In this document: positions 1,375 through 44,787 of the stretch, piece after piece | Layout: each line of letters begins with the position of its first letter | How positions within the stretch are numbered: position 1 is the stretch's first letter | Assembly (NCBI GenBank): GCA_016711605.1 | Contig: JADJSS010000009.1 | Span: 22,386 to 86,385 of the forward strand | From: Saprospirales bacterium | GTDB taxonomy: Bacteria > Bacteroidota > Bacteroidia > Chitinophagales > JADIYW01 | Direction: 5' to 3' | DNA length: 64,000 bases | Notes under the pieces: model-generated | Seen by the model: only the letters and a program-made list of their open reading frames with translations | What the model was told of the DNA's origin: nothing | Database searches by the model: none | Made by a program: the position numbers and the translations under genes

Positions 1375-2420
1375 TTGAAAAAATTATTAATCATATCATT
1401 TTTAGTTGTTTCTATACCATGTGCAAAAGCGCAACTTGGTGGAAGAAATGTATATGACTTTCTTTCGTTTCCAACTTCTTCTCGCATGGAAGGAATCAAC
1501 GGAACTTTGCAAAGCATGAAAGATGCTGATTTGTCGTTAGCTATTACTAATCCATGTTTTTTAGACAGCACTTATCACAAACAATTATCACTCACCAACT
1601 CATTTTATATTGACAAGATGAATGTAGGAAATATTGCATTTGCCTACACACATCCAAAGATAAAATCTACTATTGCTTATACGTTTCAATATGCATCCTA
1701 CGGTAAATTCGATGGTCGCGATGCTGCTGGAAATTCAACAGGCACGTTTCGTGCAAATGATTTCAACATGCAAGCTGGAATCGGCAGAAACTGGAAAAAT
1801 TTCTACTATGGTGTTAATTTAAAATTGATTGTATCGCAATTGGCAATGTATACGTCAGTCGGTTTTGCAACAGATGTTTCCTTAGCATATCATAGCGATA
1901 AAAAAATATTTCTGCGGTTGTTATTTTGCGAAATGCAGGCATGGAATTAAAACCTTACGACAAGCAAATTGGCAGAGAAAAATTGCCATTGCAACTCGAT
2001 GTTTCATTCTCAAAAAAATTCAAACATTTACCAATTACACTTTCTGTTACAGCGCATAATTTGCAAGTTTGGAAATTGACTTTTCCTGAGGAAGAACAGC
2101 AATCTATCTTGTTAGGTTCTACAAAAAAGAAAAGTAAAAGCACTGAAATAATTGATAATATTTTTCGCCATTTTGCTTTTGGTTTAGAAGCACAAGCAGG
2201 CAAACCAGTGCGTTTGCGTTTTGGATATAACCACATGCGCCGACAAGAATTAGGTGGTGTTGGAAAGAAGAAAGGTTTTTCAGGTTTTTCTGCAGGAATT
2301 GGTATCAACATCAAACAATTTGCATTCGATTATGCGTATGGCGCATATAGCAAAGTTGGCAGTGATCATCAATTAACTTTCAGAATTAAATTAGACGAAT
2401 TCGGACGAAAAGCGAAATAG
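1375..2420 (+). pseudogene. porQ: T9SS protein PorQ family, split by a frameshift in an A7 run
   Basis: Two overlapping ORFs (1375..1950 and 1926..2420) together read like one ~345-aa PorQ-type outer-membrane beta-barrel: a signal peptide, then AQLGGRNVYDFL, ending in GFSAGIGINIKQFAFDYAY. Frame 1 reads YHSDKK and frame 2 continues NISAVVILRNAGMELKPY. The switch lies at the A-run 1900-1906. Confidence 0.7.
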
Positions 2421-20376: not shown

Positions 20377-21456
20377 ATGTACAAAATCCTGCGATTTTTT
20401 TTGTTCAAATTAGATGCTGAGAAAGCACATCATTTTACATTGCGTTTAATGAATTTTATTATTAAAATTCCGTTTGCAAAATATTTTCTTACTAAAATTT
20501 ATTCAATAGAAAATAAAAAACTTGAACGAAATTTATTTGGTTTAACCTTTAAAAATCCTGTTGGCTTAGCAGCTGGTTTAGATAAAAATGCGGAATGTAT
20601 TGATGCGTTTGCTGCTGTTGGTTTTGGCTTTATTGAAATTGGAACTGTAACACCTTTACCACAAGATGGAAATGAACAGCCACGTTTATTTCGCTTAATT
20701 GAAGACAAAGCTATTATAAATCGAATGGGTTTTAATAATGGTGGAATGGCTGCTGTGAAAAGTAATATAGTAAGCAGTAAACAGTATGCAGTAAAAAATA
20801 AACTCACGACTCACAACTCAAGAATCACGACTATCATTGGTGGCAACATTGGTAAAAACAAAAATACACCAAACGAAAACGCAGTTGATGATTACATAAA
20901 ATGTTTTAATGAATTGTATGATGTTGTAGATTATTTTGTAGTAAATGTAAGTTCACCAAACACACCGAATTTACGTGCTTTGCAAGAGAAAGAACCGTTG
21001 AAAAAAATCTTGTTTCAATTGCAGGAAATTAATCAACAAAAAACAAAACCGAAACCAATTTTATTAAAAATTGCGCCTGATTTAACTAACGAACAATTAG
21101 ATGATATTATCGAAATTGTTTTTGATACCAACTTAGCTGGAATTGTAGCAACAAATACTACTATTTCAAGAGAAAATTTATCGACAGAAAAAGAAAAAAT
21201 TGATGCAATTGGAAATGGTGGTTTGAGCGGAAAACCATTGACAAAAAAATCAACAGAAATAATAAAATATATTGCAGAAAAATCAGAACACAAAATTCCT
21301 ATTATTGCAGTTGGTGGAATTATGACTGCAGATGATGCGATAGAAAAGCTCAACGCTGGCGCAAGTTTAGTACAGTTATATACTGGTTTTATTTACGAAG
21401 GTCCGAGTTTGATAAAGGAAATTAATATACGCATTCTCAACTTTTCTAAAGTTTAA
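20377..21456 (+). CDS. pyrD: Dihydroorotate dehydrogenase (quinone), class 2
   Basis: 359 aa colinear with E. coli PyrD ([58 protein letters not shown]). A TATATTTG -7-like box lies at about 20359. Confidence 0.9.
20802..20832 (+). repeat. Phased heptad tract ACTCACG ACTCACA ACTCAAG AATCACG ACT inside the pyrD coding sequence
   Basis: It is the same word family as 14302-14332. It encodes [10 protein letters not shown] within a loop about 14 aa longer than in E. coli PyrD. Confidence 0.75.
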
Positions 21457-21471
21457 AACTTTAGAAAAGTT
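21439..21471. terminator. Bidirectional hairpin between convergent pyrD and the LytTR regulator
   Basis: A perfect 15-bp inverted repeat, AACTTTTCTAAAGTT TAA AACTTTAGAAAAGTT, spans the pyrD stop codon. Confidence 0.6.
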
Positions 21472-21472
21472 A

Positions 21473-22234
21473 TTACAAAGTATCAGAAATCTTCGCCAGC
21501 AAATCATCTTTTTTTCTACGCGAAACTTCTATTTCTGCACCATTCATCATAATTACTTGTCCACCATCACCGCGCACATATCTGCGAATATGTTTCAGGT
21601 TGATGATGTGTGATTGATGCACACGCACAAAATCAAAATCTTCGAGCAACTCTTCAAAATATTTTAATGGTTTTGAAGACATAATCATATCGCTGGTAGT
21701 TAAGTAAATTTTGGTATAAGAAGAATCTGCATCTACATGAATAATTTCATCTAATGAAGCAAAATAAATTCCTTCTAACGTAGAAATTGCGAGTTGTTTT
21801 TTTCCTACATCTTTATTGCTAATTTTTTGTTCCAACAACTCAAATTGTTTCGTTTTTATTTCGTCTGAAATTTTAACAGACAGCTTATGTACAGCTCGAA
21901 TTAATTCTTCTGGATCTACTGGTTTTAGTAAATAATCTAACGCACTAAAACGAATGGCTTTTACTGCGTATTGGCTGTAAGCAGTAGTAAATATTACTTC
22001 AAACGGACATTGATAATTATAATTAGCTAATAAATCAAATCCATTTTTTCCAGGCATTTCAACATCTAAAAAAACTACATCTGTTGCATTATTTTCAATA
22101 AACGAAATGGTATCATCAACACTTTCGCATTCAGCAATTACTGTTATCTGTGGACAAAATTTTTCAATCAATTTGCGTAAAACTAAACGATTGTTTTTTT
22201 CGTCATCAACAATAATTGCTTTTATCGAATTCAT
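21473..22234 (-). CDS. LytTR-family response regulator
   Basis: 253 aa. The receiver domain has IIVDDE and DVVFLDVEMPG; the C-terminal LytTR domain has VRVHQSHIINLKHI. Confidence 0.85.
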   Translation of the reverse strand: MNSIKAIIVDDEKNNRLVLRKLIEKFCPQITVIAECESVDDTISFIENNATDVVFLDVEMPGKNGFDLLANYNYQCPFEVIFTTAYSQYAVKAIRFSALDYLLKPVDPEELIRAVHKLSVKISDEIKTKQFELLEQKISNKDVGKKQLAISTLEGIYFASLDEIIHVDADSSYTKIYLTTSDMIMSSKPLKYFEELLEDFDFVRVHQSHIINLKHIRRYVRGDGGQVIMMNGAEIEVSRRKKDDLLAKISDTL

Positions 22235-22277
22235 GATTTTGATTTATTTAAAAATAAATTTTACTACAAGATACAAA

Positions 22278-25200
22278 CTAATTTAATTCCATTCTTATGA
22301 TTACTTTTGTTCCTTTTGACAAATTTGCATCATCATACAAATCAATAATTTCTACACTATAATCGGTGTCTTTAATCTTATGCAAAGTATCAAACATTTC
22401 TTGTGTAATTATAGTACCTAATGATTTGTGCTGTTTTTTTAAATTTAATTCACCAGCTTTTACGCGACCAATTCCATTATCTTCAATTTCACAAATTAGA
22501 TAATTAAAACTTCTGAAGAATTTTATATGAATATTTTTCTCGCCATTTTTTTTGAGCAAACCGTGCCAGATTGCATTTTCAACATATGGCTGAATTAACA
22601 TAGATGGCATTTCTATTGAATACACATCAATGTCATCTGTTCGAAAATCATAATTAAATTGTTGATCAAATCGCAAAGATTCTAACTCTAGATATAGTTT
22701 TAAATTTTCAATTACATCGTGCAATGGAATAAATGTTTTCACTGAATTTTCTAAAACAGAACGCACCAAACGCGATAATTTTGTTAAGTATGTTGATGCT
22801 TGCATATTCTGATCAGACAGAATCATAGCTTGAATAGAATTCATGCAATTAAAAATAAAATGAGGATTCATTTGTGCTACCAATGCTTTCAATTTTATTT
22901 CAGCTAATTGTTTTTCATAAATTGATTTTTGATTTTCGAGTCGCATTTTTTCTCGATGTTTGCTGCGTTCTTTTCGAATTCTGTTGGTAATAAAACGGTA
23001 TAAATAAAAAATTATCAATAGCGCTGCAAAGATTCTAAACAGCCAAGTTTGCCAAAATAATGGTTTTATTCGAAAAGGAAATACAGCAGCTTCAGAAGAA
23101 AAGACACCATCATTATTACTGGCGCGAACATAAAAAATATAATTGCCATGTGGCAATTTTGGATACGATGCGAAATTTCTATTTGTCCGAATCCAATTCT
23201 TATCATAACCATCTAGTTTATACTCAAATAAATTTTTCGGTGTGTTTGCAAAATCACTCGAAGCAAATTCAAATTCTATATTATTTTGATTGTTTGATAA
23301 CTTTACTTTATTGTTGTAAGCAGTGTAATTATGGTAGTCAAATTTTGTTTCATCAATTGATATTGACGTAATGTTTACAGTTGGTTTGTAATTATTGTAA
23401 GGAATATTAGTTGGGTCGATAATATTAAAACCATTAATTCCACCAAATAATAATTCATTGTTTTTGGTTTTTAAAAATGCACCATTATTAAACTCATTAC
23501 TTTGCAAACCATCATTAACATCATAACTTCTGATTTTATTTGTCGGTGGTTCGAAAGTAGTGATACCACGATTGGTACTCATCCAAAACTTGCCAGCTTC
23601 ATCTTGTAAAATTCCATAAATAAAATTATTACTGAGGCCATTTTTTTCAGAAATATTACGTTCTATTTTTTTTGTTCTTTTATTAAACAAATAGATTCCA
23701 TTGTTTCCGGTAGTAATCCAAAATCGATCAGTATCGTATTTTAAAAGTGAGTATAACTGATCTGTTTTAAAATAAGTTGAATTAATCATCTTTATTTTAT
23801 TTGCATCCAGGAAACCGTTTCTCATATCAACATGATATAAGCCAGTTGCAGATGCAATCCACCATGTATTGTCCTCATCTTCCAAAATATATCGTGTAGT
23901 TGTTGCAACATTAGTAAATTGAAATGAATCTAGCTCGAACTGATTTTTCTGGTTATTAAATGTATAGATAGATTTTTCATCGATTGCATATACTTTTCCA
24001 TTTTTTGATTCAAACAATCGAATATGAAAATAGCGTGGAATTTTTAAATTTTCTTTTGTGTTGTTTGCTGTAAAATAATATCTATAAAAAGCATTTTTTT
24101 CTGGAATAAATTTGCAAATTCCATTTAATGTGCCTACCCATAAATTATTATTGCTATCATTTAATAGATCTTGTATAATATCATTTGAAAGAGAATTGGA
24201 TGAGTTATTATTTCTCCAATTTGAAAAAATATTTTCTTTAGTATTATATTGAAACAAGCCACCACCATCTGTTCCAATCCAAATTATTTCATTATCATTG
24301 CTTTCAAAACATAAAATATATTTATTGGTAAGCCAAGTAGTTTTAAAGGGTTCTTGTGTGATGTGTTTAAATTTGTATTTAAATGGAGAAAACATCGCCA
24401 ATCCAGAACCTTTAGTACCTATCCAGAAGGTTCCGCTTTTATCAAAAAACAAACTAGTTGTTTTATTATCTGGCAAACCATTTAAATCATAAGCATCATA
24501 TTTGTATTCAGAAAACTGATTTTTACTGCTAACATAAATCAGTAATCCATTTTGGTACGATGCAATAAAAACATTACCATCGTTATCAATTTTAATATCG
24601 GCTGTTTTATCTTTTAAAGCGATAAACTGCTTCCTTTCTTCAGGAAATGAATCAATACTTACAAAATTTTTATCTGTTTTATAAATGCCAGATTCTGTTC
24701 CAATCCAATAATTACTTTGATTGTCTTTAACCATTGAATTAATTTTCTTTGGAATTAAATTTTGCCAGATATAAGATGCACTTTTTAACTTAAAGACTTT
24801 AGTTGAAATATTGTATACATATAATCTATTATCTCTTCCAGAAACCAAAAAATGTGAGTTTGAAATTTTAAACAAAACTTCTCTGTAATCTGGAAGTGCT
24901 TCTACTTTTAAATTATATTCTTCTTTATTTGAATTTAATTTTTCTACTAATCTTACTTTATACAAACTGTTCTCTGTTTGCAACCAAGTTGTCAACGAGT
25001 CTTCAACGAATATTTTAATTATTTTTAATGGATAAACAGCATTCACAAATTTCTTGCTGTCATAAAAATAAATACTCAATCCTTTTTCAGTTCCAAACCA
25101 AAATAATCCTGGTTTAGATTCTGCAATACAAGTGGTATAATTAGAGACTAAGCTATTCTTGTTTCCAATTTCTCTTTTTATTGAATTGAAAGAATATCCA

Positions 25201-25428
25201 TCATATCTGTTCAGTCCTTCTTGTGTGCAAAACCACATAAAACCTTTACTATCCTGAAATATTGAATATATACTGTTTTTGTGAGAGACCATTTTTAATA
25301 TCAATGTTGTCTAGCTTTAATTGAGATACGTCATTACTAAACAACATATTATTGTTAAGCAACAACAAATAAATCAAAATGCCTTTTAAAAAGGATAAAG
25401 AAAATATTTTGATTTTTGGGTTTTGCAT
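22278..25428 (-). pseudogene. Sensor histidine kinase (beta-propeller repeats, Y_Y_Y, TM, LytS-type His_kinase, HATPase) with its N-terminal signal-anchor exon out of frame
   Basis: The 1008-aa body is intact (propeller repeats with GLxxYD, AQMNPHFIFNCMNSI, IEDNGIG). An ATG at 25428 opens MQNPKIKIFSLSFLKGILIYLLLL...LDNIDIKNGLS in another frame. The frames meet at CACAAAAAC (T5 at 25276-25280). With one A fewer, the sequence reads GLSQNSIYSIFQD, which matches the family N-terminus. Confidence 0.7.
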
Positions 25429-25850
25429 TACTACAAAATATAAATAACTTAGGTATTAATACACTTTTTCGTAAAAAAAAATGGAATGCAAAAAAGCATC
25501 CCAAATAACATAGAAACATAAAAACCCACTTTCTTGTCTCAATTTTAATAAATAAATGAGAGCTAACTGATTAATTTCAAGACAAGTAATAAAATAAACA
25601 ACTATTAATCACAACACAAAAATATCTCTACTCTTTAACAATATATCAGTAACTAGAATTCGGTACTAAAATGACTTTAAATGGTAGAAACTATTTAGTA
25701 TTTGGTATTTAAAATCAAACACAACAAGTTCATAACCAACTGTAAATCAACAATATAATTTTAAAAACACAAATATCAAAATCTTATCAAAAATTTACAA
25801 TCTTATTAAAATTACTTTTTTACACATTATCTTATCATTACCACGCCAAA

Positions 25851-25949
25851 CAAACGTTTGATACAATGCATGCATTGATTATTTTTATGTTTAGATAATC
25901 TGAAATCATTTTCAAATTATAAAATTTATTCATTCTCAATTTGAAATTG
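25851..25949. promoter_or_regulatory. Three palindromes upstream of or overlapping the TetR gene start; candidate operators
   Basis: CAAACGTTTG (25851-25860), CAATGCATGCATTG (25864-25877, a perfect 14-mer) and CAATTTGAAATTG (25937-25949, overlapping the GTG start). Confidence 0.4.
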
Positions 25950-26533
25950 TGCCGAAGCAAAAAGTAAGTGTAGAAGAAATTTTAAAACATTCGTTGAAGT
26001 TATTTCGACAAAAAAGCTATCACAACACTTCAATTGCTGATATTGCTTCTGCTTGCGGTTTGCTAAAAGGAAGTTTATACCATTATTTTCCTTCAAAAGA
26101 AGCGTTGATGAGTGCTGTAATAAAATATGCACACGATTTTTTTCAGAAAGAAGTTTTTTCTATTGCTTACGACAAAACATTGTCACCACAGCAACGTATG
26201 GAAAAAATGTTTAAAAAATCAGAAAAAGCATTAATTTCTGATGGAAATATTATGGGAAATATTGGCGTAGAAACGGCGCGTGCCATTCCTGAATTTGCAG
26301 AACATATTCGCGATTTTTATAAAGAATGGTTAACTGCAGTTGAAACAGTTTTTATGGAAATCACCAACGCTGATGATGCGAAAAAATTAGCAGAACAAAC
26401 AGTTGCCGAATTTGAAGGTGCTGTTATGATGACACGAATTTTTAAAGACACCAAATATATCAAAAATGCATACGAACGATTGATGAATCGTTTTGCCGCA
26501 TTTACTTTAGCAGATTTAAAACAAAATCACTAA
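25949..26533 (+). CDS. TetR/AcrR-family transcriptional regulator
   Basis: 194 aa with an N-terminal HTH (FRQKSYHNTSIADIASACGLLKGSLYHYFPSKEAL). GTG start. It heads the beta-oxidation operon. Confidence 0.85.
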   Translation: MPKQKVSVEEILKHSLKLFRQKSYHNTSIADIASACGLLKGSLYHYFPSKEALMSAVIKYAHDFFQKEVFSIAYDKTLSPQQRMEKMFKKSEKALISDGNIMGNIGVETARAIPEFAEHIRDFYKEWLTAVETVFMEITNADDAKKLAEQTVAEFEGAVMMTRIFKDTKYIKNAYERLMNRFAAFTLADLKQNH

Positions 26534-26565
26534 TTTTTCATTATAAATTGTTCACTAAATAGTAT

Positions 26566-29500
26566 ATGGAAACTACAACAACACAACCAACAAGAGCTAT
26601 CAGAAAGGTAGCCGTTCTCGGTTCAGGTGTGATGGGTTCTGGTATCGCATTGCACTTTGCCAACATTGGCGTCGAAGTGCTTTTGCTCGATATCGTACCT
26701 TTTGATCTGAAAGAAGAAGAAAAAGCAAATCCGAAAATGCGCAACAAAATTGTAAATGATGCATTTGCATTTGCTTTAAAATCAAAACCTGCTCAAGCGT
26801 ACAATCCTGAATCGGCAAAAAAAGTTACGCTCGGAAATTTTGACGATGACATGCCGAAAATAAAAGATTGTGATTGGATTATTGAAGTTGTAATTGAAAG
26901 ATTAGACATTAAAAAACAAGTGTTTGAAAAGGTAGATAATCTTCGCAAGAAAGGTTCATTGGTTACCTCAAATACATCTGGTATTCCAATTCATTTAATG
27001 GCAGAAGGCAGAAGCGAAGATTTTCAACAAAATTTTTGTGGTACACACTTTTTCAATCCACCTCGCTACATGCGTTTATTGGAGATTATTCCTACCGCAA
27101 CAACTAGTCAAAGCGTAATTGATTTCTTAATGCATTACGGTGATGTTTTCTTAGGAAAAGAAACCGTGTTATGTAAAGACACACCAGCGTTTATTGCAAA
27201 TCGTGTTGGTGTTTATGCAATGGCAAAAATTTTCCAACTAACACAAGAATTAGGTTTAACTATTGAAGAAGTAGATAAATTAACTGGCTCTGCAATTGGT
27301 CGTCCTAACACAGGAACGTTCAAACTTTCTGATTTAGTTGGAAATGATACAGGAACAAAGGTAATGTTAGGTATCAAAGAAAATTGTCCGAATGACGAAC
27401 AAGCATCTGCATTCGATGTTCCAAAATATGTTCAGTTTTTGTTAGATAATAAATTTTTTGGCAATAAAACTAAAAAAGGATATTACTATAAAGATGAAAA
27501 ACGAAATTCGTTTTCACTTCGTTTAGATACATTAGTATATGAACCAACAGGAAAACCAAAATTTCCATCTTTAGACGCTTCAAATAAATCTGAAAATTTA
27601 GCAGGAAAAGTAAATGCATTTATTAATGCAGACGACAAAGGTGCACAATTAGTAAAACGTTCGTTGAGCGGTTTATTTGCTTATGTTTCTAATCGTGTTC
27701 CAGAAATTTCTGATGTGTTATATGCTGTCGATGATGCCTTACGCGCTGGTTTTGCTTGGGACATTGGTCCTTTCCAATATTGGGACATTGTTGGCATTGA
27801 AAAAGGTATCGAATTAGCAAAAGCAGATGGTTTATCCATTGGCACTTGGGTAACGGAAATGTTAGCAGCAGGCAATACTACTTTCTATAAAGTAGAAAAT
27901 GGTGTAAAAAAATATTACGATCAACAATCAAAATCATACAAAGCAATTCCAGGTGCTGAATCATTTATCATTTTAGATAATTTACGTAGCAATAAACCAG
28001 TTTGGAAAAACAGTGGTGGTACGTTACATGATATTGGCGATGGTGTTTTGAATTTAGAATTCACTTCAAAAATGAATTCATTAGGTGGTGATGTGTTAGC
28101 AGCTATTAATAAATCTATCGAAATTGCAGAAGGTGGTTACAAAGGCTTAGTAATCGGAAACGATGCTACCAATTTTTCTGTTGGCGCCAACTTAATGATG
28201 ATTTCCATGTTGGCAATGGATCAGGAATATGACGAATTAGATATGGCTGTTCGTCAGTTTCAGCAAACTACGATGCGCTGCAGATACTCAGCAATTCCAG
28301 TAGTTTCCGCACCACACGGCATGACACTTGGTGGTGGTTGCGAAGTAACCATGCACTCTAATGCAGTGGTAGCAGCAGCAGAAACTTATATTGGTTTAGT
28401 AGAAGTTGGTGTTGGTTTAATTCCAGCTGGTGGTGGCACTAAAGAATTGACTTTAAGAACTTCTGATAGTTTCAAAAATGGTGATCCGATGTTACAAACG
28501 TTGCAAGATAATTTCTTATCAATTGCAATGGCAAAAGTGGCAACTTCAGCAGCAGAAGCAATCGATTTAAACTTAATGCGCAAAGGTGTTGACAGAGTAG
28601 TTGTAAATGGCAAACGTGTAATTGCAGAAGCAAAACGCGAAGTGTTAGAATTATCTGCAAAAGGTTACACGCAAACTGCTCATAGAAATGACATCACTGT
28701 TTTAGGTAGAACTGGTTTAGGTACACTAACAGTTGGTGTAGAATCATTCGTAGCAGGTGGTTATATTTCAGCTCACGATGCAGTAATTGCTAAAAAAGTA
28801 GCATACGTAATGTGCGGTGGCGATTTATCAGCACCAACACAAGTAAACGAACAATATTTATTGGATTTAGAAAGAGAAGCATTCTTATCGCTTTGCGGTG
28901 AAAAGAAAACACTTGAAAGAATCCAGGCAATGTTGACAACTGGTAAACCATTGAGAAACAATTCAAAATCTAAAATTCAAAATACAATGCAAGAAGCATA
29001 TATAGTAGCAGGTTATCGCAGTGCGATAGGCAAAGCAAAAAAAGGCGGTTTCCGCTTTTATCGTCCAGATGATTTAGGTGCTGATGTGGTAAAACATTTA
29101 GTAGCATCAGTTCCACAATTAGATCCATCACGCATTGATGATTTAATTTGTGGAAACGCCATTCCAGAAGCAGAACAAGGTATGCAAATCGGTCGTATGA
29201 TCGTGTTACGTGCAGGTTTACCATTGTCAATTGGTGGTGTAACTGTTAATCGTTATTGCGCATCAGGTTTAGAAACCATTGCCATGGCAACAGCAAAAAT
29301 TAAAGCAGGAATGGCAGACTGTATCATCGCTGGTGGTGTAGAATCTATGTCTTTATTACCAATGACTGGCTGGAGAACGGTATTAAATTATGGCATCGCA
29401 TCAACCACACCAGATTACTATTCTTCAATGGGTTTAACAGCAGAAGCTGTTGCAACGCAATACGGAATTTCTCGTTTAGACCAAGATACGTTTGCATACA

Positions 29501-30165
29501 ACTCGCATGTAAAAGCAATTGCCGCAATAGAATCAGGAAAATTTAAAGATGAAATTGTACCTGTAACAGTGGAAGAAGTTTATTTGAAAGACAATAAAAG
29601 AAAAGTTCGTTCTACTATAGTGGATACAGATGAAGGTGCGCGTAAAGACACAACTGTAGAAGGCCTTGCAGCATTAAAAGCAGTATTTGCAGCAAAAGGT
29701 TCTGTAACTGCAGGTAACTCATCTCAAACATCTGATGGCGCAGCATTTGTGTTAGTGATGTCAGAAAAAATGGTAAAAGAACTAAACATCGAACCAATCG
29801 CAAGATTAGTAACAAGTGCAGTTGTTGGTTGCGAGCCACGCATCATGGGTATTGGTCCTGTAGTAGCAATACCACGTGCATTACAATTAGCAGGTTTAAA
29901 AATCGAAGACATTGAAATGATTGAATTAAACGAAGCATTTGCTGCACAATCATTAGCAGTAATTCGCACATTGGGTTTAAATCAGGATATCATTAATCCA
30001 AACGGTGGTGCCATTGCATTAGGTCATCCACTAGGTTGTTCAGGTGCAAAATTATCTGTACAATTAATTAATGAAATGCGTCGTCAAAACAAACGCTACG
30101 GTATGGTGTCAGCTTGTATAGGTGGTGGACAAGGTATCGCAGGAATTATAGAAAGACTTAAATAG
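26566..30165 (+). CDS. Fused 3-hydroxyacyl-CoA dehydrogenase / enoyl-CoA hydratase / acetyl-CoA C-acyltransferase (FadB-like plus FadA-like in one ORF)
   Basis: Residues 1-798 hold an NAD Rossmann fold (VAVLGSGVMGSGIA) and a crotonase-like region, ending TGKPLRN. A 9-aa linker, NSKSKIQNT, follows (28960-28986). Residues 808-1199 are a complete thiolase starting MQEAYIVAGYRSAIGKA, with NRYCASGL, GNSSQTSDGAA and CIGGGQG. The ORF track shows no in-frame stop between the parts. Confidence 0.85.
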   Translation: METTTTQPTRAIRKVAVLGSGVMGSGIALHFANIGVEVLLLDIVPFDLKEEEKANPKMRNKIVNDAFAFALKSKPAQAYNPESAKKVTLGNFDDDMPKIKDCDWIIEVVIERLDIKKQVFEKVDNLRKKGSLVTSNTSGIPIHLMAEGRSEDFQQNFCGTHFFNPPRYMRLLEIIPTATTSQSVIDFLMHYGDVFLGKETVLCKDTPAFIANRVGVYAMAKIFQLTQELGLTIEEVDKLTGSAIGRPNTGTFKLSDLVGNDTGTKVMLGIKENCPNDEQASAFDVPKYVQFLLDNKFFGNKTKKGYYYKDEKRNSFSLRLDTLVYEPTGKPKFPSLDASNKSENLAGKVNAFINADDKGAQLVKRSLSGLFAYVSNRVPEISDVLYAVDDALRAGFAWDIGPFQYWDIVGIEKGIELAKADGLSIGTWVTEMLAAGNTTFYKVENGVKKYYDQQSKSYKAIPGAESFIILDNLRSNKPVWKNSGGTLHDIGDGVLNLEFTSKMNSLGGDVLAAINKSIEIAEGGYKGLVIGNDATNFSVGANLMMISMLAMDQEYDELDMAVRQFQQTTMRCRYSAIPVVSAPHGMTLGGGCEVTMHSNAVVAAAETYIGLVEVGVGLIPAGGGTKELTLRTSDSFKNGDPMLQTLQDNFLSIAMAKVATSAAEAIDLNLMRKGVDRVVVNGKRVIAEAKREVLELSAKGYTQTAHRNDITVLGRTGLGTLTVGVESFVAGGYISAHDAVIAKKVAYVMCGGDLSAPTQVNEQYLLDLEREAFLSLCGEKKTLERIQAMLTTGKPLRNNSKSKIQNTMQEAYIVAGYRSAIGKAKKGGFRFYRPDDLGADVVKHLVASVPQLDPSRIDDLICGNAIPEAEQGMQIGRMIVLRAGLPLSIGGVTVNRYCASGLETIAMATAKIKAGMADCIIAGGVESMSLLPMTGWRTVLNYGIASTTPDYYSSMGLTAEAVATQYGISRLDQDTFAYNSHVKAIAAIESGKFKDEIVPVTVEEVYLKDNKRKVRSTIVDTDEGARKDTTVEGLAALKAVFAAKGSVTAGNSSQTSDGAAFVLVMSEKMVKELNIEPIARLVTSAVVGCEPRIMGIGPVVAIPRALQLAGLKIEDIEMIELNEAFAAQSLAVIRTLGLNQDIINPNGGAIALGHPLGCSGAKLSVQLINEMRRQNKRYGMVSACIGGGQGIAGIIERLK
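28960..28986 (+). repeat. Spacer-like phased tract (TTCAAAA TCTAAAA TTCAAAA TACA) translated as the FadB-FadA linker
   Basis: It has the same A/C/T-only heptad style as the leader tracts at 30211-30260 and 47092-47119, and it ends at the thiolase ATG (28987). Confidence 0.6.
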
Positions 30166-30172
30166 AATTATA

Positions 30173-30260
30173 GAGATGAGATCTGAGATGATGAAATAAA
30201 AAGATAATTATCTCTCATCTCTTTTCTCATTTCTCAAATCTAAAATCTAAACATCTCAAC
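30173..30260 (+). repeat. Phased-heptad hairpin between fadBA and the acyl-CoA dehydrogenase gene
   Basis: GAGATGA GATCTGA GATGATG (30173-30193) is followed by an A-rich loop. Then TCTCTCA TCTCTTT TCTCATT TCTCAAA TCTAAAA TCTAAAC ATCTCAAC (30211-30260) abuts the ATG at 30261. CTCATCTC and GAGATGAG give a perfect 8-bp core. Confidence 0.75.
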
Positions 30261-32039
30261 ATGGAAAAAATATTAGCACTTAAAGGTGGAGAATTTATTA
30301 TCAAAGATTCAACTACCGAAATGGTTTTCACGCCAGAAGACTATACCGAAGAACAACTCATGGTTCGCGCAATGGCATCTGATTTTATTGAGAAAGAAGT
30401 AATGCCACGCTGGAAAGAAATTGAAAAGCAAGAACCCAACGTAACTACCGATTTGCTGAGAAAAGCAGGTGAATTAGGTTTGCTTTCTACACCTATTCCA
30501 GAAGAATACGGTGGAATGCAACAAGATGTAATTACAGGTTGCATTTTAGCAGAAGAATATGGCAGAACAGGTTCTTTTGCTACCACAGTAATTTGCCATA
30601 TTGGTATAGGAACGTTACCAACTTTATATTTCGGTACGGAAGAACAAAAACAAAAGTATTTACCAAAATTAGGCAGTGGCGAATGGCCTGCGTCATATTG
30701 TCTTACGGAGCCAAGTTCTGGCTCAGATGCATTAGGAGCAAAAACAACAGCTACACTTTCTGAAGATGGAAAATCATGGATTCTGAACGGACAAAAAATG
30801 TGGATCACAAACGCAGGTTTTGCTGAATTATTTACGGTGTTCGCAAAAATTGATGGTAAAGAATTTACTGCATTTTATGTAGAAAAAGGAACGCCTGGTT
30901 TAACGTTGGGTGCCGAAGAAGATAAAATGGGTATCAAAGGTTCTTCTACAAGACAAGTGTTTTTTGAGAATTGTAAAATACCTGTAGAAAACATGTTAGG
31001 CGAACGTGGCAAAGGCCATTTAATTGCGTTTAATATTTTAAATATTGGTCGTTATAAATTAGCAGCAACTGCACTTGGTGGTGCTCGTGAAGCATTTAAT
31101 ATGGCTGTAAAATATGCTAATGAAAGAACACAATTTGGAAAATCGTTAGATACATTTGGTGCTATTCAATTTAAGATTGCAGAAATGGCAATCAAATTAT
31201 TTGCATTAGAAGTAGCAACTTACCGATGTGCAGAAGACATCGAAAACACGGAACATATTTTAAAAGAGCAAGGGTTGGATTTTGCGAAATCATTATTAGG
31301 TGGCGCAGAAGAGTTTGCAATTGAATGTTCAATTGTAAAAGTATATGGCTCTGAAGTGCTGGATTATATAGTAGATGAAAACGTACAGATTCACGGCGGA
31401 ATGGGTTACTCAGAAGAAACCAGTGCTGCGCGTGCATACAGAGATTCTCGTATTGCGCGTATCTACGAAGGCACGAGCGAAATCAATCGCTTGTTATCTA
31501 TCGATATGTTGTTGAAACGTGCAATGTCTGGCAAAATCGATTTGATGACTCCAGGCATGGCTATTCAAAAAGAATTGATGTCTGTTCCAGACTTTTCAGA
31601 CGATAGCGACTCTCAATTTGCAGCTGAAGAACGCGCAATGAAGAATGCGAAGAAGGCATTCTTGTTAGTAGCTGGTGGTGCTGTTCAAAAACTAATGGCA
31701 AAAATGAAAGACGAGCAGGAAATTATTATGAATGCGTCTGACATGTTGATCGATGTGTATGTAATGGAATCCTTATTGTTACGTGTGAAAAAGATCTATG
31801 AAAAAGGTGAAAAAAATGATCAGGTGTATATCGATATTTTAAAAGTATTTTTCAATGATGCATTAAATCGTATCAATACAAAAGGAAAAGATGCATTGCA
31901 ATCTTTTGCAGAAGGTGATGAATTGCGCATTATGCTGATGGGTTTGAAACGTTTTACAAAATACGAACCCGTAAATGTAAAAGAAGCACGCAGAAGAATT
32001 GCTGCAAAAGTTATTGAAGGTGGAAAATATAATTTGTAA
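30261..32039 (+). CDS. Acyl-CoA dehydrogenase (long form with C-terminal extension)
   Basis: 592 aa. It has ACAD blocks (CLTEPSSGSDA, WITNAG, YRDSRIARIYEGTSEINR). Confidence 0.9.
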   Translation: MEKILALKGGEFIIKDSTTEMVFTPEDYTEEQLMVRAMASDFIEKEVMPRWKEIEKQEPNVTTDLLRKAGELGLLSTPIPEEYGGMQQDVITGCILAEEYGRTGSFATTVICHIGIGTLPTLYFGTEEQKQKYLPKLGSGEWPASYCLTEPSSGSDALGAKTTATLSEDGKSWILNGQKMWITNAGFAELFTVFAKIDGKEFTAFYVEKGTPGLTLGAEEDKMGIKGSSTRQVFFENCKIPVENMLGERGKGHLIAFNILNIGRYKLAATALGGAREAFNMAVKYANERTQFGKSLDTFGAIQFKIAEMAIKLFALEVATYRCAEDIENTEHILKEQGLDFAKSLLGGAEEFAIECSIVKVYGSEVLDYIVDENVQIHGGMGYSEETSAARAYRDSRIARIYEGTSEINRLLSIDMLLKRAMSGKIDLMTPGMAIQKELMSVPDFSDDSDSQFAAEERAMKNAKKAFLLVAGGAVQKLMAKMKDEQEIIMNASDMLIDVYVMESLLLRVKKIYEKGEKNDQVYIDILKVFFNDALNRINTKGKDALQSFAEGDELRIMLMGLKRFTKYEPVNVKEARRRIAAKVIEGGKYNL

Positions 32040-32187: not shown

Positions 32188-33027
32188 ATGAAAAAAATAG
32201 CAAAAAATAGTTTTCTATTTTTATTAATTAGTATACCAATTTATCTATTTGGATGCTGGTTTTTAGCAAGATTATTAATTCAATCGTACAACGAACCTGT
32301 GATTTATCAGAATTATTTTCCGAAAGAGAAAGTGCAGAATTGGAATTTAATTACTCAAGATAATCAGAAAATCTCTGCGTGGTTTATTAAAAAAGATACT
32401 TCAAAGGTGATTGTTTTATTGGCTGGAAAAGGTGGCAACAGATTAAGCATGATGGAGAAAGCTAAATTTTATTTAGATAAAAATTATTCAGTGGTGATGC
32501 CAGATTTACGTGGCACAGGAAACAGCAAAGCAGACTTTGTAACCATTGGCTATAATGAACGTTTTGATTTATTAGCATGTATTGATACCTTACAAAAATT
32601 GCATTATACAAAAATCGGCGCACAAGGTCATTCGCTTGGAGCAGCAACCATTGCTTATAGTTTCAAGGATTTTTCAGATTATAGCTTTGTTGTTTTAGAA
32701 TCTTGTTATGATAATATTGACCATGCATTTAAACATAGAATGCAACGGATGCATTTGCCAGCTTGGTTGATGTTTCCTGTGAAAAAATTTGCAGAAATGC
32801 GCTTAGGAATTTCATCACAAGAATTATATCCAGAAAATTATATGGCTAAAATAAATTGTCCAGCATTGTTTTTATGTGGTGATAATGAATGGCAAAATCC
32901 AATTGCAGAAAGTAAAAAATTGTATGACAATTGTTCATCATCAAAGAAATATTTTCACATCTTTAAAGGTGCAGCACATCAGGATTTTTTAAATTATTCA
33001 GCAACTGAATACAAAAAAATGAATTAA
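32188..33027 (+). CDS. Alpha/beta hydrolase with an N-terminal membrane anchor
   Basis: 279 aa. It has nucleophile elbow GHSLGA, and a TM segment FLFLLISIPIYLFGCWFLA. Confidence 0.7.
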   Translation: MKKIAKNSFLFLLISIPIYLFGCWFLARLLIQSYNEPVIYQNYFPKEKVQNWNLITQDNQKISAWFIKKDTSKVIVLLAGKGGNRLSMMEKAKFYLDKNYSVVMPDLRGTGNSKADFVTIGYNERFDLLACIDTLQKLHYTKIGAQGHSLGAATIAYSFKDFSDYSFVVLESCYDNIDHAFKHRMQRMHLPAWLMFPVKKFAEMRLGISSQELYPENYMAKINCPALFLCGDNEWQNPIAESKKLYDNCSSSKKYFHIFKGAAHQDFLNYSATEYKKMN

Positions 33028-33817
33028 ATAAGATAGTAGAATAATTTACGCAATGGTAGCTTTGCTTTTTTTCTAAAGAATCTAAGAATTCTTTTTTCTT
33101 GCGTTTTGAAATTTCAACTTTGCTGCCATCTGTCATTAAACAAAAGTTATCACCATGGTCAATTTCTTTCATGTGCGCCAAATTAATTAAATGCGACTGA
33201 TGGATGCGCAAGAAATTATACGGCAACAATTTATCTTCAAAATTTTTAAGTGTTTTTGACACCAACACTTTCTTTTGATTAATTAAAAAAAACAAGGTAT
33301 AATTACTTTCTGATTGTAAACGAATAATTTCATTTACTTTTAAAAAGATAACGCCATCTTTTGTAGGTACCATTAGTTTAGAATCCTGCTGCTGTTCCGA
33401 TTTTATTTTATCTAAATAACCTTGCACTTGTGCAGCTTGTTTCAGCGAATCTTTTTCTTCTAATCGCTTAGCAACTTTCTCAATAGCTTTTTTTAATTCA
33501 GTTTCTTTAATAGGTTTTAGCAAGTAATCTGCTGCATTATTTTTGATGGCACTAATCGCATATTTATCATGCGATGTGGTAAAAATAATTTCAAAATCCG
33601 TATTTTCTAATTCATTTAATAAATCAACACCTTTGCCATCTGCTAATTCAACATCTAGAAAAATAAGTTGAGGTTTTACCGTTGGTAAAACTTTCTTTGC
33701 CTCTCTTTTAGAATTACAAACACCATCAATTCTAATATTCAAACCAGTTTGAATGATAGCTTTTTTTAGTATTTCCTGAAAGATTGGCTCGTCTTCTATA
33801 ATCACTGAGCTAATCAT
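32963..33817 (-). CDS. LytTR-family response regulator with an atypical ~34-aa C-terminal extension
   Basis: 284 aa with a receiver domain (IIFLDVELADG) and a LytTR domain (LRIHQSHLINLAHM). The tail after FLDSLEKK overlaps the convergent hydrolase gene by 65 nt. An A7 run (T7 at 33066-33072) sits exactly where paralogues end. Confidence 0.8.
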   Translation of the reverse strand: MISSVIIEDEPIFQEILKKAIIQTGLNIRIDGVCNSKREAKKVLPTVKPQLIFLDVELADGKGVDLLNELENTDFEIIFTTSHDKYAISAIKNNAADYLLKPIKETELKKAIEKVAKRLEEKDSLKQAAQVQGYLDKIKSEQQQDSKLMVPTKDGVIFLKVNEIIRLQSESNYTLFFLINQKKVLVSKTLKNFEDKLLPYNFLRIHQSHLINLAHMKEIDHGDNFCLMTDGSKVEISKRKKKEFLDSLEKKQSYHCVNYSTILFNSFFCIQLLNNLKNPDVLHL

Positions 33818-39086: not shown

Positions 39087-42000
39087 ATGAAATACTGTAA
39101 CTTAAAATATAGTCTTTTTAAATCATTATGGATGATACTGATTTTGTGTTGTAGTGCCAACATGCACGCAGCCATTACTATCGACTCTGTAAAAACAACC
39201 ATTAGCCGTTGTCCAAATAACGGAACAATTACGGTGTTTGCCAGCAGCAACCAATCAAGCATTTTATATTCTATTTTATCTGGTCCGGAAATTCGACCTT
39301 ACCAAAGCGGTAATTTATTTAATGGTTTATTTCCTGGAACGTATGTAGTTTCAGCAACCAATGTGACTGGCGAAAAATATTCACAAACCGTTATTGTTAA
39401 AGGTTCAAATTATGTTGAACCTGATTTTGCACCAACTTCTAAAGAGCCAACCTGCTTTGGTGGTAGTGATGGACAAATTATTGGACGGCCAATTTTAGCA
39501 AATAGCAGACCGCCATTTACTTGGGTTTTAACCAATACACAAACCAATGTGGTTACTACTCAAAGCAATGATACTTTTAATAATTTAAAAGCAAGTACTT
39601 ATACGTTGCGCATGTACGATTCCTGTCAAAATTTTGTAACAAGGACCATTTTTATAAATAATGATGATACGATTTTTAAGGAAATAAATATTTTTCCCAA
39701 CATTAAAATATCAAAGATTGGTTGTGATACAATGAGATTGAATTTCTATTTTTATACATCAAACCAAAATTATACAGGAACTTATAAACTTACTATGCAT
39801 AGTAATAATGATACTATTATCAAATTCGTCAAGCCAAAAATATATGGTACAAATTATCCATTTTCTGGCGTTAATACTTATGAGATTATAGATACATTTC
39901 CTAATATAAATTATGGCGAAGATTTTCATTATATATTAGAAAATAATTGTGGCAAAAAAATATTTTCAAAAGAAAAAAGAATTGATCCATTTATGTTTAC
40001 TGTATATTTATGGTATAATGACACAACTGACTGTACAGGAAACTTAGGTGCCATTTTGGATATATATCATAACAAAGTCAGATTTGAAGATTATTTATTT
40101 AGTTCCTAAATATCCATTAACTATGACTGTAAAAGATATTGCAACAAACATTGTTGTACAGACTTCTCAAATAAACAATGGATATTTAAATATTACACCA
40201 AAGATTGCAGGCAGAAATTATTTAATTACAATTTCAGATGCTTGTGGTGATATTTATGCTTTGATACCATCTGGCCATTCCTGGAAAGCCAAATGTTTCC
40301 TTTAAAGAACTACAGGTTGCATAGATTCAACTACTACAGTTATTTTAGACTTATATGGATTTAGTAAAGGATTAAAGTTAGAAATAATTTCAGGAACAAA
40401 ATTTTTAGAAAGTACAAAACCAAATTACTCATATTTTGATTCCATAAAATATCCGAAAATTTATACAAAATTTGAATCTTATACTGTATCTGCTGGTAAT
40501 ATAAATGTTACATTATTATTTAGATAATTTTTAAAAATTTACCTGCTGGAATTTATCATTATAAAGTAACCGATTCATGTGGAAATGAAATTATAGATTC
40601 ATTTTTTATTAGAGACTGATTTAACCATTCTAAATCACCAAACATATTTTAAGAGAGGATGCTTAGGTCAAAATATTTTATATTACAAACTGAATTGTAA
40701 AAAATCTTATAGAAAATATATAACACTTAAGAACTTGACCACTAATACCACTGATAATATTTTTGATTCTATAACTTCTATTCCATCTGCAAAATATGAA
40801 GTTACGATTTCATATTATATTTATGCTACAGCTATCAACGAAAACATTAAAGATTGCTGGACGGTAAAAGATACAGTTGAAATTCCACCATATGAACGAC
40901 CTCAAACAGCAAGTGTTTCTATCATTTATTGCAACGGCAACCGCTATGCAGAACTGCATCCAGACAGCACCAAAGGTATTGCTCCATATCAATATGAAGT
41001 AATTTCCGGTCCGCGATTGTATCCTTTGCAAACGTCTAATCTATTTACATTTATTCCTGTTGGCAATTATGTGTCGCGTATTGTAGATGCTTGTGGCAAT
41101 TCCAATATTTTAGATTTTGGTGTGGATACGCTTATTTTTCCTCCTATCAATAAAATCGGTTCTTCGTGCTTAAATGGTTCTGTCACTTTATATTATCAGC
41201 CATCACCATTTTATACCTATCAATGGACAAAACCCAATGGCAGCATTTATATTGGTGATTCTTTATCTATCAATGGCGTTGTGTATGCTGATACAGGTTT
41301 GTACCAGATAAAAGATTTGTAAATATTAATGGCTGCAAAGATACTGCAGAAACTACTTACCGACTTACGAGCACTACCGAATACACGCGTGATGCTCGCA
41401 TTTGCGAAGGCGAAAGCATTACTGTCGGCACGCATACATATACACAAACTGGTATTTATATAGATACAATTCCTTCGCTTTTTTGTGACACGATTTATAG
41501 ATTAAATTTAACGGTGTTGCCAATTCTTAGAAAAACGATTGATACCACTATTTGTTTTGGAAAAGGCATTCAAATTGGAAATCATTTTTACAATCAAACC
41601 GGTACATACGTTGATACGCTAGTATCTATCAATGCTTGCGATAGTATTATCACATTAAAACTTACCATTACACAAGGTATAACTTTACAAATTACTGCTT
41701 CTAAAACCATAGTGTTTCCTGGCGATACGGTGCAATTGCATGCAATTTCCACACAACCAATTGGTAGTTATATTTGGACAAGCATTGCAACTTTAAACAA
41801 CAATACTATCCAAAATCCAATTGCAACGATTACACAACCAAGTTGGATTTATTTAAATGTTACTGGTGATAGTTTGTTTAGAGGTTGCAAAAACAACGAT
41901 TCTATTTTTATTGATTTGATTAAAGATTGTAAAGCAGAAAATGTATTTATTCCAAATGCATTTTCACCAAATAACGATGGTTATAATGATGTATTTAAAG

Positions 42001-42209
42001 TTAGAAGTTCCACTTTATTAAGCGGCACTCTTTTAATTTATGATCGTTGGGGCAACAAAGTATTTGAATCAGATGATTTAAGCAAAGGTTGGAACGGAAC
42101 TTACAAAGGACAACCTGCGCAAGTGGAAGTATATGGTTATTATTTCGAAGGCAAATGCCTGAACGAAGAATCCATTATATTAAAAGGAAATGTTACGTTG
42201 TTGAGATAG
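39087..42209 (+). pseudogene. Large T9SS adhesin (type B / gliding-motility C-terminal sorting domain) broken at five or more positions
   Basis: Four track ORFs (39087..40109, 40048..40305, 40735..41322, 41514..42209) plus unlisted open segments (about 40306-40527, 40533-40619, 40618-40734 and 41318-41513) read as one protein. That protein has a signal peptide, repeated CxxxxxG...GxYxxxxxDxCG modules, and the terminal domain VFIPNAFSPNNDGYNDVFKV...IYDRWGNKVFES...GWNGTYKG. Disruptions lie near 40.09, 40.30 (in-frame TAA), 40.53, 40.62 and 41.31 kb. Confidence 0.75.
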
Positions 42210-42901: not shown

Positions 42902-43543
42902 TTACTTTTTCAATAACGATAGTGTTAAAAATTTTGTCGTATAGATTTTGTTTTTTTCATCAAAAAACAACCAGATATTTGGAATAATAAACCAGCAACA
43001 AATCAGTTTTATTGGTTCACGAAAAAAACCTATCACAGGATTTTTGCAATCTGCTTCGGTATCTGCTTTTATTACTTTTAATTTTAGAATTTTATGTCCA
43101 ATATTTCCACTCCAAAAATAATAGGAAATAGCAGAAAAAACACACATGATAAATAGCGAAGTTCCACCACTTGCCTTTGGAAAAAATATAGTTACAACAA
43201 CCAATGCGATAAACCAATGCAATAAACATGCAGCAAATCTTCGTGCTGGTGTTGCCATTTTATAACCTGAAAACGTTACACCTTTTGCGCCGCTTAAAAT
43301 GGCTTCGTGGTTATTGGTATTATTTTGTTTGGTGTTTTGAAGTCGCGTATTCAATTCTGCTAAATCATTTTTTGCAGATTCAATTTTATTGTAAACGTCT
43401 TCCATATTGGAAACAGGAATCCAGTCGGACATGCCATTTACCCAAATTAAATTTTCGTTTTGAAAATTTAATTTCGTTAATTCAACAATGGAAAATGGAC
43501 CAAATTGGCGACCACTTTGTATAACGTAATATCTATTTGGCAT
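42902..43543 (-). CDS. GYF_2 (DUF4339) plus RDD-family membrane protein
   Basis: 213 aa. The N-terminus YYVIQSGRQFGPFSIVELTKL...LIWVNGMSDWIPV is GYF-like. The C-terminal half is RDD-like with TM segments. Confidence 0.55.
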   Translation of the reverse strand: MPNRYYVIQSGRQFGPFSIVELTKLNFQNENLIWVNGMSDWIPVSNMEDVYNKIESAKNDLAELNTRLQNTKQNNTNNHEAILSGAKGVTFSGYKMATPARRFAACLLHWFIALVVVTIFFPKASGGTSLFIMCVFSAISYYFWSGNIGHKILKLKVIKADTEADCKNPVIGFFREPIKLICCWFIIPNIWLFFDEKNKIYTTKFLTLSLLKK

Positions 43544-43571
43544 GATTAAAAAAAAGAGACAAATGTATTAA

Positions 43572-44660: not shown

Positions 44661-44682
44661 GATAGTTTAATTTCTCGCTAAG

Positions 44683-44712
44683 GCGCTTCCGAATTTTCGG
44701 AAGAGCGGAATT
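44683..44712 (-). promoter_or_regulatory. Hairpin in the carA leader
   Basis: On the coding strand, CGCTCTTCCGAAAATTCGGAAGCGCC lies about 25 nt before the carA ATG. A second CGGAATTTTCG copy is adjacent. Confidence 0.35.
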
Positions 44713-44728
44713 TTCGATTCTCAAAAAT

Positions 44729-44762
44729 AAAAAAAAAGGTTCGCAATAATGCGAACCTTTTG
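44729..44762 (-). terminator. Rho-independent terminator after rplQ
   Basis: On the minus strand, GGTTCGCA TTAT TGCGAACC is followed by T9. Confidence 0.8.
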
Positions 44763-44787
44763 TATGTGTTGAAAAAATCATTTCTTA

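Follow-up and report, generated by a model that had tools for sequence, protein, structure and literature searches.

The fused fadB-fadA frame

The stretch analysed here, hereafter the window, comprises 64,000 nucleotides (nt) of contig JADJSS010000009.1 (positions 22,386 to 86,385) from the Saprospirales bacterium assembly GCA_016711605.1, and the element in question is a single open reading frame (ORF) at 26566..30165 (+) in which a fadB/fadN-like gene runs without a stop into a fadA-like thiolase gene. An earlier note on this DNA had described one uninterrupted frame of 1199 codons, and the ORF listing of the window bears this out. The fusion is private to this one assembly, and we infer, with moderate confidence, that it reflects a consensus insertion or deletion (indel) error at or next to the fadB stop codon and not a biological fusion.

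The upstream half carries the Pfam domains 3HCDH_N (residues 14-206), 3HCDH (209-307) and ECH (493-629), i.e. dehydrogenase followed by hydratase, and its residues 11-798 match the FadB profile NF052272 end to end (profile positions 2-752 of 752) with 604.7 bits, a score below the cut-off of 999 of that strain-specific model. This domain order at full length (~750-800 amino acids, aa) is that of the FadN-type 3-hydroxyacyl-CoA dehydrogenase/enoyl-CoA hydratases, and the motifs of the type are present as GSGVMGSG (19-26), HFFNP (161-165), GGGCE (589-593) and GLVEVGVGLIPAGGGT (610-625); we take the GxGxxG motif, the histidine of HFFNP and the crotonase GGGxE with a second glutamate to have cofactor or catalytic roles. 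In the downstream half, Thiolase_N (PF00108) and Thiolase_C (PF02803) span residues 812-1197 and thiolase profiles overall cover 806-1198, while TIGR01930 is matched over its whole length (positions 1-385 of 385) with 450 bits against a cut-off of 240.55, which places this half among the degradative thiolases (acetyl-CoA C-acyltransferase, FadA-like). The motifs NRYCASG (895-901, with the catalytic cysteine), NEAFA (1122-1126), GHPLGCSG (1153-1160, with the GHP histidine) and CIGGGQG (1184-1190, with the C-terminal cysteine) are all in place, and the reading of this half as a complete thiolase with its own Met is confirmed by sequence, Pfam, TIGR01930 and motifs alike. By calculation the product of the whole ORF weighs 129.5 kDa and its halves 87.1 and 41.5 kDa, and the ratio of nonsynonymous to synonymous substitution rates (dN/dS) against relatives is 0.03-0.07 for both halves.

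At the junction the last codons of the FadB half, CCA TTG AGA AAC, are followed by AAT TCA AAA TCT AAA ATT CAA AAT ACA and then by ATG CAA GAA GCA; the stretch as written in the assembly is AGAAACAATTCAAAATC / AACAATTCAAAATC, and the junction peptide of the fused chain is ...PLRNNSKSKIQNTMQEAY... / LRNNSKSKIQNTMQEAYIVAGYR. The tract that encodes the nine residues NSKSKIQNT had been called spacer-like, a description that holds, its flanks being those of an intergenic spacer allele of relatives. When a 27-nt spacer with these base proportions is shuffled, 39% of the shuffles have no stop in a given frame, so the open frame is statistically unremarkable. The start region of fadA in the window has A at -3, -6, -12 and -13, the A-rich start positions reported to favour initiation of translation in Flavobacterium johnsoniae (PMC6847099), and it is unstructured, as are the start regions of fadB and of the acyl-CoA dehydrogenase (ACAD) gene that follows. 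An AlphaFold 2 (AF2) model of the whole fusion reached a predicted local distance difference test score (pLDDT) of 62.9 and a predicted template modelling score (pTM) of 0.39, with values below 50 at the junction, and is too poor for domain geometry.

Separate genes in conspecific and related genomes

The TetR-family protein encoded upstream of the ORF occurs identical in 88 blocks of public assemblies and was used as a handle to fetch conspecifics. Ten conspecific contigs were examined, drawn from at least nine assemblies that include two NCBI metagenome-assembled genomes (MAGs) and several wastewater metagenomes (loci and contigs are cited by L numbers). They are 99.2-99.4% identical to window positions 20948-28952 (~8 kb, all of fadB included). 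The FadB half is 99-100% identical to the conspecific 798-aa FadB, and the thiolase half agrees equally well (99-100%) with the 392-aa conspecific protein once past about 29000; identity is 99-100% on both sides and falls only in ~40 nt at the junction. All ten contigs have a separate 798-aa fadB ending CCA TTA CGT AAT TAG, then a 463-nt cassette in which a 117-aa 23S-rRNA-IVP family gene is flanked by inverted repeats, and after it a separate 392-aa thiolase gene starting ATG AGT GAA. Loss of this cassette together with the stop was considered as the origin of the fusion and rejected, since the window has the flanks TTG AGA AAC ... ATG CAA and the cassette allele TTA CGT AAT ... ATG AGT.

The fadB-fadA spacer is an insertion hot-spot. 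The conspecific IVP cassette is found in L084-L099 (e.g. L085 8012-8490), and an IVP-type spacer gene of ~117-122 aa (four-helix bundle) also occurs in L015 (PF05635, E 4e-37), L022, L025-L030 and others, the flanking inverted repeats differing in sequence between lineages. The last three codons of fadB and the second of fadA come in versions specific to the cassette allele, which would fit a cassette that moves by homologous recombination along with its flanks. In L020 and L021 the spacer holds the gene for a 792-aa membrane protein (L021 3642-6020), and in L017 (27-2165) a gene for a protein of at least 712 aa resembling a type IX secretion system (T9SS) cargo lies directly upstream of fadA. 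Another strain-variable spot lies between rplQ and the gene for the carbamoyl-phosphate synthase small subunit, where L105 (11754-13334) and L109 (3187-4767) have two additional genes, one of 278 aa and one for a 246-aa DUF5131 protein, that the window (~44661-44787) and other conspecifics lack.

Relatives were sampled by a scan of one genome per species, which gave 79 loci, 67 of them containing both gene ends; these 67 species representatives, 2 metagenome contigs and the 10 conspecific contigs make up the 79 independent junctions compared. The FadB part had been said to end in TGKPLRN at about the place where homologues terminate, and this is borne out: in each of the 67 species-level loci the codon next after the one aligned to N798 is a stop. 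It likewise follows ...PLRN directly in both metagenome contigs with the same short-spacer allele and in all ten conspecific contigs. The check proposed at the time, whether relatives have a stop after LRN, therefore comes out against a biological fusion at each of the 79 junctions. Between this stop and the start of the thiolase lie 12 to 2424 nt, depending on which of the 67 species is taken. In relatives that are 55-99% identical the C-terminus of FadB nonetheless always falls at one position, a hint that lengthening is not favoured and may be constrained against.

Protein searches gave the same picture. No fused protein was among the best 120 matches to the whole ORF in 5.8 billion proteins, which were standalone and nearly all of 792-818 aa with a few shorter fragments, nor among the best 120 matches to the thiolase half in the same set (354-406 aa). 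No ~1200-aa fusion was among the best 150 of 1.84 billion cluster representatives, which were 481-861 aa long and matched the FadB part only; this search would miss a distant fusion with a score under 477 bits, and likewise one hidden in the cluster of a shorter representative. By exact look-up neither the fused protein nor the exact thiolase is on record, and three other neighbour proteins likewise have no match. Scans of metagenome contigs returned 0 matches to the exact junction and 2 to a loose pattern, both with a TAA stop, and no natural FadB-FadA fusion turned up in the literature searched.

With 0 occurrences in 67 species, 2 metagenome contigs and 10 conspecifics, the composite is a member of no recurring fused family. 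The covalent alpha-beta fusion that the earlier note had thought unusual stands as an ORF with two complete halves and is not supported as a lineage trait. An evolved and selected fusion, or a stop-less fadB with programmed internal re-initiation, would make the ORF a covalent trifunctional enzyme that channels substrates as a trait of the lineage; nothing speaks for it beyond the open frame and the fact that the internal initiation region is intact, and we regard it as extremely improbable. Apart from the lack of a second occurrence in the protein searches or at the junctions compared, conspecifics more than 99% identical keep separate genes with a whole extra gene between them, the spacers of relatives hold 0.4-2.4 kb including the 792-aa gene, so that tight coupling is not a trait of the clade, and the linker is recognisably intergenic spacer. 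A conserved or adaptive alpha-beta fusion is excluded, being effectively refuted by the conspecific comparison.

A presumed missing base at the fadB stop codon

The window spacer has no cassette, and its flanks, TTG AGA AAC ... AAAATACA ATG CAA GAA, are those of a cassette-free allele of other species. They are identical to those of the L018/L019/L031/L080/L081 allele, and the cassette-free type is seen in L018, L019, L031, L047 and two metagenome contigs. In relatives this allele reads AGAAAC TAATCTAATTACTAAAATTTAAATTTAAAATACA ATG (AGAAAC TAATC...AAAATACA ATG), the frame of fadA being +1. At 27 nt, the window's spacer is one short of the phase-equivalent length of 28 (34 minus 6, in the phase of L018), and with flanks of L018 type a single base explains how the stop was lost and why one frame runs through both genes. 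Of the 67 relatives, 34 have fadA in a frame other than that of fadB, so that one base lost at the stop suffices for fusion, and three loci (L006, L007 and L014) are one substitution short of an in-frame fusion.

We propose that the strain carries a real cassette-free spacer allele, ...CCA TTG AGA AAC TAA TTC AAA ATC TAA AAT TCA AAA TAC A ATG..., with fadA in the +1 frame, and that the consensus misses one base, which would be the T of TAA or else an A from the run at 28965-28968. Its loss would erase the stop and put fadA into the fadB frame. With the T restored, the 28-nt spacer reads AAC TAA TTC AAA ATC TAA ... and contains two in-frame stops, leaving fadA separate; in the alternative repair, a fifth A at 28965-28968, FadB gains four residues (NSKI) before a stop. 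The organism would then make two proteins, a FadN-type dehydrogenase/hydratase of 798 aa (or of 802 aa, should an A be the lost base) and a 392-aa thiolase, the latter started separately, as in all relatives, by its A-rich initiation region at ATG 28987. The argument that a simple indel could not account for two parts and a linker sharing one frame was mistaken: loss of the T from an L018-type TAA removes the stop and at the same time aligns the +1 fadA, and one missing base is enough to create the fusion.

The fall in identity over ~40 nt around the junction, with 99-100% on either side, could also be taken as the mark of a chimeric assembly, in which the segment ~28953-28995 comes from reads of another co-occurring strain or species and the join opened the frame. 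The flanking codons are of L018 type and not of conspecific type, and the conspecific contigs stem from mixed wastewater metagenomes, both of which accord with such an origin. We nevertheless consider it very unlikely: flanks and spacer are all of one allele type, so that no join falls within the stop codon; elsewhere fadB and fadA have comparable short patches of synonymous change that resemble ordinary recombination tracts; and no known allele has exactly this spacer.

The chief rival to a consensus error is that the sequence is correct and that a very recent, strain-private and unselected loss of one base at the fadB stop in the cassette-free allele has produced a true fusion, a reading which we hold to be possible, though short of probable. 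Ribosomes would then, on the same tentative footing, read through FadB-NSKSKIQNT-thiolase to give a ~129.5-kDa chain dimerising via its thiolase domain, with perhaps some free thiolase from ATG 28987, and the change could conceivably be neutral or mildly harmful and would have remained unspread. Such a loss is consistent with the state of the two halves, which are intact, keep all catalytic motifs and have low dN/dS with no decay, and with the intact fadA initiation region; solved thiolases with N-terminal extensions of ~30 residues (2wu9, 2iik) make an N-terminal tether tolerable or plausible, and the three loci one substitution from the same fusion show how near the arrangement lies. Against it stand the absence of the fusion from all ten conspecific contigs and all 69 other junctions, and the invariant FadB C-terminus, which suggests constraint against extension; the AF2 model is too poor to support a compatible geometry. 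Close to the junction the window has no amino-acid changes of its own, and its branch shows no acceleration in rate (lineage-specific changes of 7 vs 5 in fadA and 2 vs 5 in fadB), so nothing suggests adaptation to being fused.

Private indels and substitutions in the window

An indel is called private here where the conspecifics agree with one another against the window. The window has other private frame-breaking indels, absent from independent conspecific assemblies (Table 1), as would be seen with an assembly indel artefact. The porQ gene is intact, at 348 aa, in L100 and L102, and the sensor kinase has 1049 aa (or 1022 aa) in conspecifics. The GYF_2-domain gene has A8 at 43555 against A7 in 4 of 5 contigs and a private change at 42954/7 against 5 of 5, and its 213-aa ORF in the window has an altered C-terminus compared with 220 aa in conspecifics. 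The differences at 33013 and 33066 change the 3' ends of the convergent ORFs for an alpha/beta-hydrolase (32188-33027) and a LytTR regulator (32963-33817), which overlap tail to tail by 65 nt, the regulator having 284 vs 256 aa and an odd C-terminal tail.

Table 1. Features of the fused frame, its operon and the disrupted genes of the window.
Feature	Position	Strand	Basis or comparison
fadB/fadN-like part, complete, ending ...TGKPLRN	26566..28959 (codons 1-798)	+	Pfam, NCBIfam, motifs
AAT codon where every relative has TAA, TAG or TGA; presumed missing-base site AAC[T]AATTC	28960..28962	+	
Linker NSKSKIQNT (9 codons, 27 nt, A/T-rich); cassette-free intergenic spacer holding the fadA translation-initiation region	28960..28986	+	
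fadA-like thiolase part, complete, own ATG at 28987	28987..30165 (codons 808-1199 + stop)	+	Profiles, motifs, structure matches
TetR-family regulator gene, upstream of the operon	25949..26533	+	Pfam TetR_N + TetR_C_13_2
Acyl-CoA dehydrogenase gene (fadE-like, ACAD), third operon gene	30261..32039	+	Pfam Acyl-CoA_dh_N/M/1 + Acyl-CoA-dh_C
porQ (type IX secretion component), split by A7 run	1375-2420, site 1900..1906	+	A8 in 4/4 conspecific contigs
Y_Y_Y/His_kinase sensor gene, frameshift, N-terminal ~45 codons lost	22278-25427, site 25276..25280	-	T5 (+ strand) vs T4 in 10/10 conspecifics
Homopolymer differences: 33013 A7 vs A5, 33066 T7 vs T6	32963-33072		Conspecific L082
T9SS cargo gene (signal peptide, PKD, CHU_C), broken	39087..42209	+	Intact (1036 or 1051 aa) in conspecifics
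GYF_2-domain gene, private indels near both ends	42902-43564, sites 43548-43555 and 42951-42957	-	

About 1 in 10 window genes is affected by a private frame disruption, a share that is unusual for a free-living wastewater bacterium and common in long-read or mixed-strain consensus; were the private loss of a stop real, this ~10% of genes would have to be real private pseudogenes as well. Metagenome assemblies built from long reads or mixed strains show frameshift and fusion artefacts, and the private 1-nt indels of the window are events of this kind in form: they often lie in homopolymers, and they break up or join genes that other assemblies of the species keep intact. The conspecific MAG represented by L084/L090 (GCA_964269335.1) carries a private 1-nt insertion, equivalent to window position 29971, which splits its thiolase into 336 + 64 aa; frame errors thus arise in other assemblies of the species too.

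The private substitutions behave differently from the indels. Among those in fadB, fadA and the ACAD gene 21 of 22 are synonymous and clustered in short tracts, which marks the window as a real, distinct strain whose substitutions passed through selection, a point that also favours a genuine loss of the stop. Substitutions filtered by selection next to indels that are blind to frame form the pattern expected of consensus indel errors. Short clusters of private, purely synonymous third-position changes lie at 26919-26931 and 28080-28107 in fadB and at 30018-30024 in fadA, and look like small recombination tracts from a diverged functional allele.

In the gene for the T9SS cargo, 7 deletions between 40102 and 41310 break the frame; it further has a deletion of 24 nt, two TTA>TAA codons and 3.2% divergence from the intact conspecific gene. 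It may be a pseudogene in real decay, or else the consensus may be poor over this stretch, and together with the split porQ it could point to T9SS decay in this strain. Its in-frame stops were considered as proof of a real pseudogene and dropped, as they trace mostly to clustered 1-nt deletions besides the two true TTA>TAA changes. The cargo gene therefore does not settle between error and real mutation.

Several observations weigh against a consensus error. Most of the clear private indels fall in homopolymers; the T presumed to be missing lies outside any, and in having its suspected base outside a long homopolymer the junction differs from long-read or mixed-strain artefacts. The window contains ~100 homopolymer runs of at least 7 nt, the great majority in intact ORFs, and a 9.7-kb ribosomal-protein stretch has no private indel, so that there is no gross systematic error. 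Private substitutions number 115 against 5 private indel columns, a ratio compatible with real divergence. The cargo gene, with 2 nonsense substitutions and an indel:substitution ratio of ~1:14, fits a real, neutrally decaying pseudogene; its deletion bias and nonsense codons would imply that real 1-nt deletions occur, and the lineage may really accumulate them. On balance, the covalent alpha-beta enzyme would at best be a private mutation in one strain and is more likely a consensus error.

Operon context and comparison with known systems

The order tetR-fadB-fadA-ACAD is preserved in relatives. It is also the order of the Bacillus-type fadN-fadA-fadE operon with its TetR-family repressor, i.e. 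TetR, FadN-type protein, thiolase and acyl-CoA dehydrogenase; in Bacillus subtilis this is yusL-yusK-yusJ under FadR/YsiA. In the Bacillus-type operon and in all relatives examined fadN and fadA are separate genes, whereas the window ORF misses the stop between them.

The halves of the ORF have the same three activities as the trifunctional enzyme or fatty-acid oxidation complex (alpha2beta2; Pseudomonas fragi 1WDK, M. tuberculosis 4B3H), and in a structure search the thiolase half proved homologous to the beta chains of these complexes (1wdk_C, E 3e-80; 4b3h_C, E 1e-69). The alpha chains of such complexes have the opposite domain order, with the hydratase first, and their alpha and beta chains are separate polypeptides. 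No solved FadN-type complex was among the structure-search matches listed, all of which are thiolases.

The fadA-ACAD intergenic region (30166-30260) holds TCTCAAATCTAAAATCTAAA, similar to the fadB-fadA spacer (TCAAAATCTAAAATTC) and to the right end of the L015 cassette; the likeness may reflect a shared A-rich start-region motif or a cassette remnant. Promoter and terminator scans performed no better than on shuffles, Rfam and tRNA scans of the window found nothing, and its GC content gives no sign of a reduced, degenerating genome.

Meaning of the fused frame

The ORF resembles 'Rosetta-stone' composites in mechanism, two adjacent, co-oriented and functionally linked genes being joined via their former spacer. 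Recognised composites of this kind recur across genomes, whereas the window ORF is confined to a single assembly and absent from ten conspecific contigs. As it stands, the case is a caution that a 'fusion protein' seen in one assembly can arise from one missing base in a strain-variable spacer; it was exact-protein look-ups of neighbour genes that retrieved the independent conspecific assemblies and exposed the fusion as private.

We give some credence, below an even chance, to the strain really making a single-chain FadN-thiolase of ~130 kDa by within-species loss of the stop, possibly together with free thiolase. If so, the find would be a minor oddity, the two subunits of a bacterial beta-oxidation enzyme being for the first time here covalently joined in nature, and also a natural 'Rosetta-stone' hint that FadN-type proteins work beside FadA and a ready-made construct for substrate-channelling tests. 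If the missing base is an artefact, as we favour, the organism would have the ordinary arrangement, in which the operon mRNA gives separate FadN-type and thiolase proteins.

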